41,038 nt of DNA from a virus (IMGVR_UViG_2909262264_000002:1-41038); one strand, 5' to 3'. Counted from the first letter of the stretch, positions 37,346 to 41,038 are shown. Program-made: numbers and translations. The notes: generated by a model not told the origin, from the letters alone.

Positions 37346-38022
37346 GCAAATATACCGAACTAATCACGAACTACCACGCCACCAAACCTAAATTTCTTGC
37401 ACATGTTGATCTGATGACCCGGCCGCTTATTGATGTTGCGGCGGCCACCAGAGGGCTGATTACTGCATTTGATATTGACTCTGCGGTTGGTGTGCAACTT
37501 GACATTCTGGGATTGTGGATCGGACGTAGCCGTGTTGTCAGCCAGCCTATCTCAGGTGTCTATTTCAGTTGGGATACCGACGGGCTTGGATATGATCAGG
37601 GTGTATGGCAGGGGCCATACGATCCTGATTCCGGATACATGTACCTCAGCGATGAAACTTATCGTGTCATCCTTAAAGCGAAGATTGCGATTAATAACTG
37701 GGACGGACGGAATGATTCGCTTCCAGCAATTCTTGACGCTGCAACAGCAGGATCCGGGCTGCGAATGCAGATAGTCGATAACCAGGACATGACGATATCG
37801 GTCTGGGTCTTTCCTGATACTGATATTTCAGATGTATCGCGTGAGTTAATTGCGGCAATTAAACAGGGGTATCTAACAGTAAAAGCCGCCGGGGTATGGG
37901 CGGGGGGCATTGAAACACCTTCGGTGGAAACTCCATCGGAAGGCTCTAAATTTTTTGGTTTTGATATGGATAACGAATTCATCAGTGGTTTTGATGTAGG
38001 GGCATGGGGAGTATTACTCTGA
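37342..38022 (+). CDS. Baseplate/tail protein I-like (226 aa)
   Basis: Position between J and the tail fibre. Confidence 0.6.
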
Positions 38023-38855
38023 TGGCGAAAAATGACTTTAAAGCGTTTGCAACTGATCGAAATGCCAATGTTATGTCGCAGGAGGAATGGGAAGCGTTGC
38101 CTGCGCTTATATCCGGATTTACAGCAGGGAAAGCATCCAGTGCGCAAGTCAATAAGGTTATTCGGCAGGCCAGCTTTATTGCTGCAGCTCTGGCCCAGTT
38201 TGTAAGTGATAAAACGCAACGGGATGTGCTTGATAATGGTGATCTGCCCGGTTTTGTTGAATTGCTGGGATCGGGGTTTGCTGTTGAATACCTGAGCCGC
38301 AAGAATCCGTTTGGCGATATCAAATCGGACGGCACGGTGAAAACGGCTCTCGAAAACCTTGGTTTGGGAGAAGGCTCAGCATTACCTGTTGGGGTGCCTG
38401 TTCCGTGGCCTTCAGCCACTCCGCCAACAGGCTGGCTGAAATGCAATGGTGCGGCTTTTTCTGCTGAAGAATACCCGGAACTGGCAAAGGCTTACCCGAC
38501 AAATAAATTGCCTGATTTACGCGGTGAATTTATTCGTGGATGGGATGATGAACGTGGTGTGGATAGTGGGCGAACTCTGCTTTCATCGCAAGGAGATGCT
38601 ATTCGAAACATTACTGGCGGTTTTGGTCAGTTGCGCGTAAACAGCGAAATTAATGCAATTGTCGATGTTCAAAGTGTGAGTGGGGCTTTTTACGGAGGTA
38701 CCTCAGTCCGGAATAACATCAATGTGTCTATGACATACGCTAATGACCGAAAAATCCGACAAGATGTTCACTTCTCGGCGGCAAATGTTGTTCCAACAGC
38801 AAATGAAAATCGTCCACGTAACATCGCCTTTAATTATATTGTGAGGGCTGCATGA
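38022..38855 (+). CDS. Tail fibre protein (about 277 aa), C-terminal part inside the invertible segment
   Basis: Phage tail-collar-like motif PVPWP...GWL.CNG...YP.L...LPDLRG.F.RG; start ATG overlaps the upstream stop (TGATG). Confidence 0.8.
38350..38376. repeat. Left crossover site of the invertible segment (cix/gix-like)
   Basis: TCGAAAACCTTGGTTTGGGAGAAGG is the reverse complement (near-perfect) of the site at about 40251..40277. Confidence 0.6.
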
Positions 38856-39457
38856 TGAATAAAGCTGTATTAAATAGTGAACTCATTGCCATAAAAGCGG
38901 GAGACATTATCATTTATAATTATGATGGTGAAACGCGTGAATATATTTCTACATCAACTGAATATCTCGCTGTCGGCGTCGGTATCCCGGCATGTTCTTG
39001 TTTGGATGCACCAGGTACACATAAAGCTGGTTATGCAATCTGTCGCTCTGTAGATTTAAATTCATGGGAATATGTGCCAGATCATCGTGGTGAAATCGTC
39101 TATAGCACCGAAACAGGAGAATCGAAAAAAATCACAGCTCCGGGTGATTATCCTGAAAATACAACCACTATCGCCCCGTTAACGCCATACGATAAATGGA
39201 ATGGTGAGAAATGGGTGACAGATACCGAGGCACAGCACGGCGCAGCAGTAGATGCAGCAGAAGCACTGCGCCAGTCGCTGATTCATACTGCAATGGCCTC
39301 CATCAGTCTGATTCAACTGAAATTACAGGCCGGACGGAATCTGACGCAGGCAGAAACAACCCGCCTTAACGCTGTGCTGGATTACATTGACGCGGTGACG
39401 GCAACAGATACCAGCACCGCGCCGGATGTCATCTGGCCTGAACTGCCGGAGGCGTAG
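38852..39457 (+). CDS. Tail fibre assembly protein (201 aa)
   Basis: Position after the fibre gene; conserved C-terminal Tfa-like region (DY.DA...TDTS.APDV.WPE). Confidence 0.8.
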
Positions 39458-39872
39458 GCCATTCAATATCTGGCGCACCGGAAGTATCGATCAGCTCCAG
39501 TGCGTCCAGATAATCCAGCCACAAATTATATTGCGCCAGTTCGTCACCTTTCAGACGACCAATAGCGGCTTTACCGGGCCATTGCTTACTGTTCATGTAT
39601 TCGTTGGCCAGGTTAATTAGTAGCTGTCTTTCTGATTCAGTAATTTCAATAAGCTCTTCGTGAGTAGGTGGAGGAATATCTGCCCACGCAGGTAGTCCAT
39701 CCTCTCCCGCAATACGGACTTTTCCTTGTGGCGGTTCAGCCATAAACTCACTGACAATATTTTGATTCACCTCCTTAGCATCTGATAAATCCCATCCCTC
39801 TGATTTATATTTATCAATCATATCCACAGGGAAAAAAGCATTATGCCTTGCGCTATAAACATATTCGTTCAT
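39429..39872 (-). CDS. Alternative tail fibre assembly protein (147 aa), inverted orientation
   Basis: C-terminal [23 protein letters not shown] parallels the plus-strand Tfa C-terminus; convergent arrangement typical of G/C/P-type invertible segments. Confidence 0.8.
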   Translation of the reverse strand: MNEYVYSARHNAFFPVDMIDKYKSEGWDLSDAKEVNQNIVSEFMAEPPQGKVRIAGEDGLPAWADIPPPTHEELIEITESERQLLINLANEYMNSKQWPGKAAIGRLKGDELAQYNLWLDYLDALELIDTSGAPDIEWPTPPAVQAR

Positions 39873-39893
39873 ATTAAATCACCCTGAATAAAA

Positions 39894-40268
39894 TTACTCG
39901 CCAACAGCCCACCAACAGTAATTCATGGTAACAGTTGGACTTGTCGAGGTTGTTCTAAAGGCAGAATAAAACCCTGTTAACCCTGGCTCTTCAGTTGTCA
40001 TCATAAAACCACGACCACTCCCGGCAGTTGAACCACCATCACCAGAATGTGAAAGCAAGGCAATATCAGCTTTTTTAGGGAAAGGTATATTAAATTCTAC
40101 CCGTAGTGTCTGACTCGCAAGCGTAGGAGACACACGCCCACGACCATATTGCAGGATTTTCCCGTTGGGTAATTTCATCCATCCATCACCACTGGCAAAA
40201 GAGGCCATGTCCGGTATCTGATTCGCCCCTGTCCCCACATCCCGTTTTGCCGCTTCTCCCAAACCAAC
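39894..40268 (-). CDS. Alternative tail-fibre C-terminal segment (start-less until inverted)
   Basis: Minus-strand frame is open from the crossover site; it encodes ...[15 protein letters not shown]..., sharing the GLGE junction with the expressed fibre ([10 protein letters not shown]). Confidence 0.6.
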
Positions 40269-40277
40269 GTTTATGAA
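40251..40277. repeat. Right crossover site of the invertible segment (cix/gix-like)
   Basis: TTCTCCCAAACCAACGTTTATGAAAAT, resembling Gin/Cin/Pin recombination sites as I remember them. Confidence 0.6.
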
Positions 40278-40333
40278 AATGCAGAAATAACGAGCAAATG
40301 GCATCATTCCTGCTTTTGTCAGGGGGAGCTACC

Positions 40334-40447
40334 ATGCTTATTGGCTATGTACGCGTATCAACAAATGACCAGAACACAGATCTACAACGTAATGCGCTGA
40401 ACTGTGCAGGATGCGAGCTGATTTTTGAAGACAAGATAAGTAGTGCT
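40334..40447 (+). pseudogene. Serine DNA invertase (Pin/Gin/Cin family) remnant: only the first ~36 codons
   Basis: MLIGYVRVSTNDQNTDLQRNALNCAGCELIFEDKIS matches invertase N-termini including the catalytic Ser in YVRVST; homology ends abruptly and the frame runs into unrelated AT-rich sequence. Confidence 0.75.
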
Positions 40448-41038
40448 ATGGGGGTTAGGCATTATAATTGGTTGTTAAAAATCAATAAGTTTTGTATTGT
40501 TGTGATGATATTACCATCATGTTACAAGGTGTGGATTTTGGCGAAGTTACTATATGTAAAACCTATAACGATAAAAAAAGCAAATGAATTTGTTTCTATT
40601 TATCATCGACACCATCGACCAACGTCAAGGAATTCGGGCAGATGGGCTATAGCTGCCTACCACATAGATTCTGATGAATTGGTTGGTGTAGCGATAGTTG
40701 GAAATCCCGTATCTGCAACGTACATGGATGGTGTGACGGCAGAGATTACACGATTATGTGTCAGTGACAAATCTCCAAAAGGAACTTGCTCCTTTCTGAT
40801 TAGTCGATGTAGCACAATCTGGAAAATGATGGGAGGAGAAAAAATTATTACCTATACTCTAAGCAGTGAAACAGGCGCATCTTTAAAAGGTGCTGGGTGG
40901 CAGTTAGTTGGGACTGTACATCCTCATAATCGTTGGGCCGATAAAGCAAAGCAGGATGGAATAATTAGGGATAATTTAGAAATATATAAACTGAAGAAAT
41001 TTCGTTGGGAATGTTTACTCGGGGAGGTTCTAATATGA
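40448..41038 (+). CDS. Unknown protein encoded in-frame downstream of the invertase remnant (true start unknown)
   Basis: Markedly AT-rich DNA by eye; translation ...ANEFVSIYHRHHRPTSRNSGRWAIAAYHIDSDELVGVAIVGNPVSATYMDGVTAEITRLCV...KGAGWQLVG...; in-frame Met candidates at about 40448 and 40505; stop at the window end. Confidence 0.4.
   Translation: MGVRHYNWLLKINKFCIVVMILPSCYKVWILAKLLYVKPITIKKANEFVSIYHRHHRPTSRNSGRWAIAAYHIDSDELVGVAIVGNPVSATYMDGVTAEITRLCVSDKSPKGTCSFLISRCSTIWKMMGGEKIITYTLSSETGASLKGAGWQLVGTVHPHNRWADKAKQDGIIRDNLEIYKLKKFRWECLLGEVLI

Follow-up and report, generated by a model that had tools for sequence, protein, structure and literature searches.

The described systems closest to the locus reported here are the serine invertases of the Pin/Gin/Cin/Hin type, such as e14 pinE and Mu gin, and the Mom protein of phage Mu. 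Serine invertases of this kind (~180-195 amino acids (aa)) possess a complete catalytic domain and a C-terminal helix-turn-helix domain. In Hin, the two Fis sites of the enhancer lie ~100 bp away from the crossover site, within the part of the gene that codes for the N-terminus (PMC2724282, PMC3798978). Mom attaches glycine, supplied by Gly-tRNA, to the N6 position of adenine in double-stranded DNA; R111, S124, R151 (241-aa numbering) and a helix-turn-helix-like (HTH-like) insertion are essential for it, and it requires no partner protein (PMC13219725). Here we describe the right end of a viral sequence of 41,038 nucleotides (IMGVR_UViG_2909262264_000002:1-41038; the whole stretch is called the window), a mosaic lambdoid prophage of E. 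coli in which a Pin-family invertase gene gives way, after 36 codons, to an AT-rich cassette. We consider it rather probable that, as a whole, the following account holds: a replacement cassette displaced most of the invertase gene, its XF1762-family gene uses a start codon of its own, the cis elements for inversion were kept, and the cassette is a conflict module.

Over 40200-41038, the window shows 100% identity to E. coli strain WAT. Positions past the window are given in the WAT locus, the RefSeq context of the identical strain (L001). The invertase remnant and the cassette comprise the following features.

40334-40440, + strand: Pin-family invertase remnant, 107 nt identical to intact pinE, 36 codons, with the ribosome-binding site GGGGGAG at 40322-40328
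40441-40470, no strand: junction filler of 30 bp, matching neither pinE nor the Klebsiella and Hafnia cassettes
40471-40537, + strand: the cassette's own non-coding leader, with homology to leaders in Klebsiella oxytoca and Hafnia that are likewise non-coding
40472-40500, + strand: candidate weak promoter, TTGTTA (40472-40477) and TATTGT (40495-40500) with a 17-nt spacer, 8 of 12 positions
40526-40531, + strand: predicted ribosome-binding site of the XF1762 gene, AAGGTG, 6 nt upstream of TTG 40538
40538-41038, + strand: complete XF1762-family gene, 166 aa, predicted TTG start, encoding a Mom-related GNAT-fold enzyme
41035-41038, + strand: start of the partner gene (ATGA overlap), 344 aa, with 1,031 nt more beyond the window (L001 8836-9870)

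Compared with pinE, of which an intact copy is present in another E. coli genome, the window is identical from the crossover site to 40440 and unrelated from 40441; codon 36 reads AGT in the window and AGC in pinE. Matches to phage and E. coli invertases all end at base 40440 as well, and the Pfam Resolvase match covers only positions 2-44 or 2-45 of the 145 in the model. The alignment to intact pin genes thus places the breakpoint at 40440/40441. Together with the drop in guanine-cytosine (GC) content, it agrees with the sequence-only reading of this DNA, which had described an invertase cut after about 36 codons and joined in frame to AT-rich foreign DNA. The GC content is 34% in the cassette versus 48.9% in the remaining prophage, with values of 32-38% past the break. 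The open reading frame 40298-41038 (246 aa) is present, and residues 13-48 of its translation represent the N-terminal end of a serine invertase of the Pin/Gin type (Pfam Resolvase). Its ATG at 40298, which that reading took as the start, is CTG in one carrier and is thus not conserved; the invertase begins at ATG 40334. The same reading let the frame end at the window edge. It is indeed open to the last base, but it does not run off, and TGA is the final triplet of the window.

Similar to e14 pinE in its opening 107 nt, the remnant differs from Pin, Gin, Cin and Hin in that 36 of ~184 codons are kept. Neither a complete catalytic domain nor the C-terminal helix-turn-helix domain is encoded. 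With the DNA-binding domain and most of the catalytic domain lost, the invertase is dead, and the system is unable to carry out inversion by itself. The truncation by itself is ordinary prophage decay.

The 3' part of pin was not found downstream, within 2 kb, and a search around the cassette for a transposase, terminal inverted repeats, a target duplication and insertion sequence (IS) ends found none. With no pin 3' half downstream and neither IS-like ends nor a target duplication, the change is, judged from the sequence, a replacement by a single illegitimate recombination event and not a simple insertion. The sequence-only reading had already suggested that a replacement knocked out the invertase and introduced a new gene, and extension past 41038 supports it, except that two genes came in, the XF1762 gene and its partner. 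The cassette (~1.78 kb) fills the interval from invertase codon 36 to sib/attP. Collinearity of the carriers extends from the right crossover site as far as L001 10024, and homology to the sib/attP region of HK022 and other lambdoid phages starts at L001 10021. A perfect 11-nt hairpin (ATTAGCGCAAG ... CTTGCGCTAAT) is located at L001 10021-10056, at the start of this HK022-type homology, and the right edge of the cassette abuts it exactly.

The part of the frame beyond the junction belongs to the XF1762 family (NCBIfam NF045478), with 169-170 bits against a cutoff of 50, over model positions 2-143 of 143 and residues 87-238 of the open reading frame. Nearly all of 418 relatives have lengths of 157-190 aa, typically ~160-170 aa, and 234 aa occurs only in the E. 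coli form; no other XF1762 member among these relatives has an N-terminal extension of this kind. The N-terminus of the relatives, MAK(V/L)..KPITIKKANEF, aligns with L81-A82-K83 of the window frame, in which L81 is TTG 40538. In the cassettes of K. oxytoca and Hafnia the DNA homology begins at 40471, 67 nt before this TTG, the start codon is GTG at the equivalent position, and AAGGTG is likewise found upstream. The leaders of Klebsiella and Hafnia contain two to three in-frame stops. Because of the conserved start position, the ribosome-binding site, the length of the relatives and the stops in their leaders, the XF1762 gene is assigned to 40538-41038 (166 aa) with its own start. Since the family's start codon and ribosome-binding site are kept, the 246- or 234-aa fusion is most likely an incidental accident of reading frame. 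The ~200 downstream codons that were taken as a continuation of the fused frame are, from about residue 80, a complete gene with its own start.

In 18 paired loci (L015-L024, L033, L094 and L096-L101), the first codon of XF1762 is TTG in eight, GTG in six and ATG in four. Weak starts (GTG or TTG) in 14 of 18 partner-coupled genes are unusually consistent, and the weak start codons suggest a dose-limited, possibly toxic activity. The candidate promoter TTGTTA/TATTGT is absent from the output of the promoter scan. A perfect TATAAT is present in the junction filler at 40463-40468, with no convincing -35 element upstream. Two codons ahead of the XF1762 start the window has TGG (40532-40534), where Klebsiella has TGA and Hafnia TAA; the frame is open to the invertase ATG through this TGG codon plus the loss of one to two further stops upstream. 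A regulatory RNA hairpin of the Com type, placed at the start codon, was considered and rejected, as six leaders share no conserved structure, and the Rfam search gave no match.

RefSeq calls the gene in its 234-aa form in all six genomes that carry it, extended by 68 codons upstream into the invertase remnant, and NCBI also has a 166-aa annotation (WP_250147808.1). Public names of the gene include 'resolvase', 'recombinase family protein' and 'XF1762 family protein' (234 or 236 aa). The long annotated forms are probably over-extended. Public annotation is misleading in this respect, as the likely product is a 166-aa enzyme.

In strain WAT, the stop codon of XF1762 overlaps the start codon of the partner gene via ATGA. 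The structural model of the partner (predicted local distance difference test, pLDDT, 86.5) comprises a Lon-N/PUA-like domain (residues ~1-130), an immunoglobulin-like sandwich, a disordered linker and two C-terminal transmembrane helices; the fold of its N-domain resembles Lon N-domains and PUA-like barrels. The partner belongs to the uncharacterised phage family phrog_30351. No match was found in Pfam, NCBIfam, PADLOC, member-by-member Pfam scans or a PDB profile search, and longer members of the family carry no recognisable fused domain. The family comprises ~580 representatives at 50% identity, nearly all with one architecture. From its model and gene arrangement, the partner is predicted to be an inner-membrane-anchored protein coupled translationally to XF1762.

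A profile of the partner family places the partner directly after XF1762 in 19 of 19 loci in which XF1762 shares at least 58% identity with that of the window, and in none of 140 loci of more distant XF1762 relatives. The 19 loci belong to Enterobacteriaceae, Pseudomonas, Stutzerimonas, Luteimonas, Teredinibacter, Hyphococcus, Desulfoluna, Polaribacter, Myroides, Arenibacter and phage contigs. Coupled loci thus span Enterobacteriaceae, Pseudomonas, Bacteroidota, Desulfobacterota and Alphaproteobacteria. A PM2-like Vibrio prophage carries the pair as well. Median identity over the coupled loci is 66% for XF1762 versus 33% for the partner. In Vibrio phage 10N.286.55.F1_PE001 (L004 4979-5474), the annotation splits the XF1762 homologue into two short coding sequences, so the homologue may be frameshifted, and the partner next to it is intact.

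The earlier suggestion of a Mom-like GNAT modifying enzyme is upheld, since the XF1762 family has the GNAT fold, like the Mom crystal structure (PDB 8bv8), and is related to Mu Mom. At the profile level, comparison of the downstream residues with the Mom-family alignment matched the N-terminal half with a probability of 91% (E 1e-6), and PHROGs assigns XF1762 to "Mom-like DNA modification protein" (E 3e-37), the same PHROG family as Mu Mom. In the profile-profile alignment, H58, R111 and S124 of Mom correspond to the invariant H23, R72 and S85 of XF1762, and the position of Y59 is an invariant Arg. The XF1762 score for Pfam PF25680 is 23.3-24.6 bits and does not reach the gathering cutoff of 27.1; a precomputed PF25680 match is present in many closer members of the XF1762 family. 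Over the C-terminal half, where R151, D149 and Y159 of Mom are located, permissive and global profile alignments to Mom were unreliable. By GNAT topology, Y159 would fall on the Leu of GASL(K/R)GAGW.

Similar to Mu Mom, XF1762 occupies a site at the prophage right end after an invertase. Its model has a helical insertion of ~26 aa (residues 128-153) between the last two strands, a possible counterpart of the HTH-like insertion of Mom, which has ~35 aa (175-209). Unlike Mom (231-241 aa), XF1762 has 166 aa, no com-like gene is present here, and it has an obligatory membrane partner. Because the invariant Arg, Ser and His are shared, yet Y59 is replaced by Arg, the C-terminal half does not align and the Pfam threshold is missed, XF1762 is a sister family of Mom and not its orthologue. 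A conserved synteny of an invertase and a Mom-like gene, as in gin-com-mom, was rejected: among 159 loci carrying relatives, an invertase is adjacent only at the E. coli junction. For this reason the likeness to the Mu gin-com-mom order is a positional coincidence. To our knowledge, Mom was until recently a one-off, the sole GNAT known to modify DNA, using charged tRNA. XF1762 is a compact Mom relative that keeps the essential Arg and Ser and is 58-82% identical across distant phyla.

Prophage-end cargo ('morons') and defence hotspots adjoin att or int, e.g. in the lambda b region and the P2 hotspots. Similar to these, the cassette forms a self-contained, AT-rich operon placed after the tail genes and before sib/attP, it persists in decayed prophages, and it adjoins integrases in unrelated elements: the pair lies next to att or int in four of them. 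Chromosomal islands other than phages also carry the pair, in some cases next to Gabija GajA, a restriction endonuclease-like protein or a HEPN/Toprim protein. In Teredinibacter, a full-length Gabija GajA (L017 8402-10801) lies ~830 bp downstream of the pair. Distant XF1762 relatives in phages adjoin DNA methylases (C5) and genes with a PAPS-reductase domain.

In the mechanism that we propose, XF1762 would be a transferase of the Mom type, placing an acyl or aminoacyl group on a base of a nucleic acid, and would be held at low dose by its weak start codon. The fast-evolving membrane partner would bind or regulate XF1762, or respond to its product, and the pair would act as a prophage- or island-borne conflict module in the lysogen.

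The cis elements of the invertible fibre segment are located upstream of the remnant and within it.

38354-38373, no strand: left crossover site, a 20-nt inverted repeat with 95% complementarity to 40253-40272, inside the fibre gene 38004-38855
38374-40252, no strand: invertible segment with a variable fibre end and an assembly gene on the + strand and an alternative set on the - strand, open reading frames being present on both strands
40253-40279, no strand: right crossover site, with the 26-mer TTCTCCCAAACCAACGTTTATGAAAA at 40254-40279; inverted repeat, to which the gix-type site ahead of gin in Mu can be aligned
40355-40418, no strand: putative Fis-dependent recombinational enhancer, with two G-N13-C cores at 40355-40369 and 40404-40418

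As in the Pin, Gin and Hin systems, paired 26-bp crossover sites surround a segment of 1.9 kb with alternative fibre ends and assembly genes, which RefSeq labels as tail protein and tail fibre assembly proteins. The two enhancer-like blocks of the 5' coding region are conserved in Mu gin and a second invertase, both lie within the retained 107 nt, and their geometry agrees with PMC3798978. Of the cis elements for inversion, both crossover sites survive and, by inference, so does the enhancer. Among the six carriers, three have the fibre segment in one orientation and three (MEI1A-0323, MEI2O1-23 and LH10-b-1) in the other. The homology of the flipped carriers starts at 40253, and the inversion boundaries between WAT and MEI1A-0323 are exactly the inverted repeats 38354-38373 and 40253-40272. 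A Pin-family invertase encoded elsewhere in the genome could therefore flip the fibre segment in trans. That the deletion ended just beyond the inferred enhancer, together with the two orientations among carriers, suggests that host-range switching can outlast the loss of the prophage's own invertase. In the decayed carrier LH10-b-1, an intact 190-aa invertase, 77% identical to PinE, is encoded at L002 5246-5818 on the - strand, so that a live invertase gene adjoins the fibre segment on one side and a dead one on the other.

In complete E. coli genomes the cassette was found only with this junction, in six of 5,426. All protein variants share the junction, and therefore it arose once. Six complete genomes, assembled independently of each other and originating from four countries, have the identical junction, and fusion forms of 234/236 aa occur on more than 400 contigs. 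The cassette has moved since it arose: in MEI1A-0323 it adjoins intS and tRNA-Arg. In PK8568 (L013) and LH10-b-1 (L002) most of the prophage is deleted, and the cassette and the att-proximal sequence are intact.

The evidence on the junction also bears on two other explanations of the frame. AT-rich regions are prone to assembly problems, and the junction could in principle be a sequencing or assembly artefact, or the trace of a mobile element that split a complete invertase. This deserves next to no credit: the same junction in six complete genomes and hundreds of contigs excludes an artefact, and an IS or transposon is rejected by the lack of a transposase, terminal repeats, target duplication and pin 3' half. 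The 234-aa chimera (Pin residues 1-36, a linker of 32 residues and XF1762) could, on the other hand, be a real and selected product, the cassette having been captured so that the promoter, ribosome-binding site and ATG of the invertase express an enzyme with a weak start codon of its own. The 97-nt region 40441-40537 is stop-free and in frame, the leader stops of Klebsiella and Hafnia are absent here, including the one two codons before the start, and the 234-aa form is the one annotated by RefSeq in the six genomes. We nevertheless judge the chimera improbable, as the start position and AAGGTG of the family are conserved and intact, the 32 linker codons come from leader DNA that does not code for protein in the relatives, a 166-aa annotation exists as well, and no other family member has such an extension. 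Selection on the linker as a coding sequence was uninformative, since it is invariant among carriers; it shows no variation indicating selection, and rare variants alter its amino acids. Three synonymous sites in the pin remnant were possibly imported from intact pin genes and so give no sign of selection. The suspicion that the downstream frame is an untranslated remnant is set aside by the complete 166-aa gene, at 169 bits. An incidental fusion, with XF1762 starting at 40538, is the reading that we retain.

As to function, XF1762 could hypermodify the phage's own DNA in lytic growth as a Mom-like counter-defence, with the partner as an accessory or regulatory protein. The Mom homology in profile, PHROG family and fold, the retained essential Arg and Ser, the DNA-modification neighbourhoods of the distant phage relatives and the right-end position, which is that of mom in Mu, are consistent with such a role. 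However, Mom needs no partner (PMC13219725), while this clade is strictly tied to a membrane protein; the pair is also found in non-phage chromosomal contexts and beside defence genes; it is intact in prophage remnants without lytic growth; and XF1762 departs from Mom in an invariant Arg at the Tyr59 position, a shorter insertion between strands 6 and 7 and a score below the Pfam Mom threshold. We therefore regard protection of phage DNA as unlikely. We prefer to it, although only tentatively and with somewhat less than even chances, a conflict module that serves defence or exclusion in the lysogen or host. Circumstantial pointers to such a module are the cargo position beside att or int, the island loci with defence-type neighbours, the intact cassette in two heavily decayed prophages, the weak start codons and the pairing of a conserved enzyme with a fast-evolving partner. 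A more specific form is a two-component conflict system in which a mini Mom-type transferase marks DNA or RNA with an acyl group, perhaps via aminoacyl-tRNA, and the partner reads, removes or responds to the mark; this is conceivable but doubtful. If it is true, a two-component module for phage exclusion or self-marking has spread across phyla and unrelated phages. Other roles, e.g. an addiction module, take up the remaining probability. In any case, the cassette, with its widely transferred enzyme, is a 1.8-kb clonable candidate for a second Mom-type chemistry or a new defence system.

Several observations weigh against the favoured account. An open in-frame junction would arise by chance in only ~1.7% of cases (5% of shuffles stop-free x 1/3 for the frame), and the start signals of pin, ribosome-binding site and ATG, are intact, so the 234-aa fusion may well also be made. 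The inverted segment (L008 4139-6020) is just 88% identical between MEI1A and WAT, while the flanks are 98-99% identical; for this reason an exchange of modules between prophages, instead of a recent inversion in trans, could yield both orientations. A second close copy of pin was looked for in strain WAT, and none was shown. The best fold match of the partner is the protein-binding Lon N-domain and not the base-binding EVE/ASCH. Defence-island neighbours are present at three to four of ~11 loci, an association that is anecdotal. Neither protein matches a defence model of PADLOC-DB 2.0, XF1762 having only a chance-level match to SduA (E 0.005), and no published experiment or paper addresses XF1762 or its partner.

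The prophage is integrated between torS and torT, and the 11-bp att core CTTTAGGTGAA was found at its left and right ends. Its early region and integrase are lambda/21-like, and its tail module is contractile, with the invertible fibre segment. The window opens precisely on the stop codon of the integrase and closes precisely on that of XF1762, i.e. it was cut at gene boundaries, and the right end of the prophage lies ~1.37 kb past the window end.
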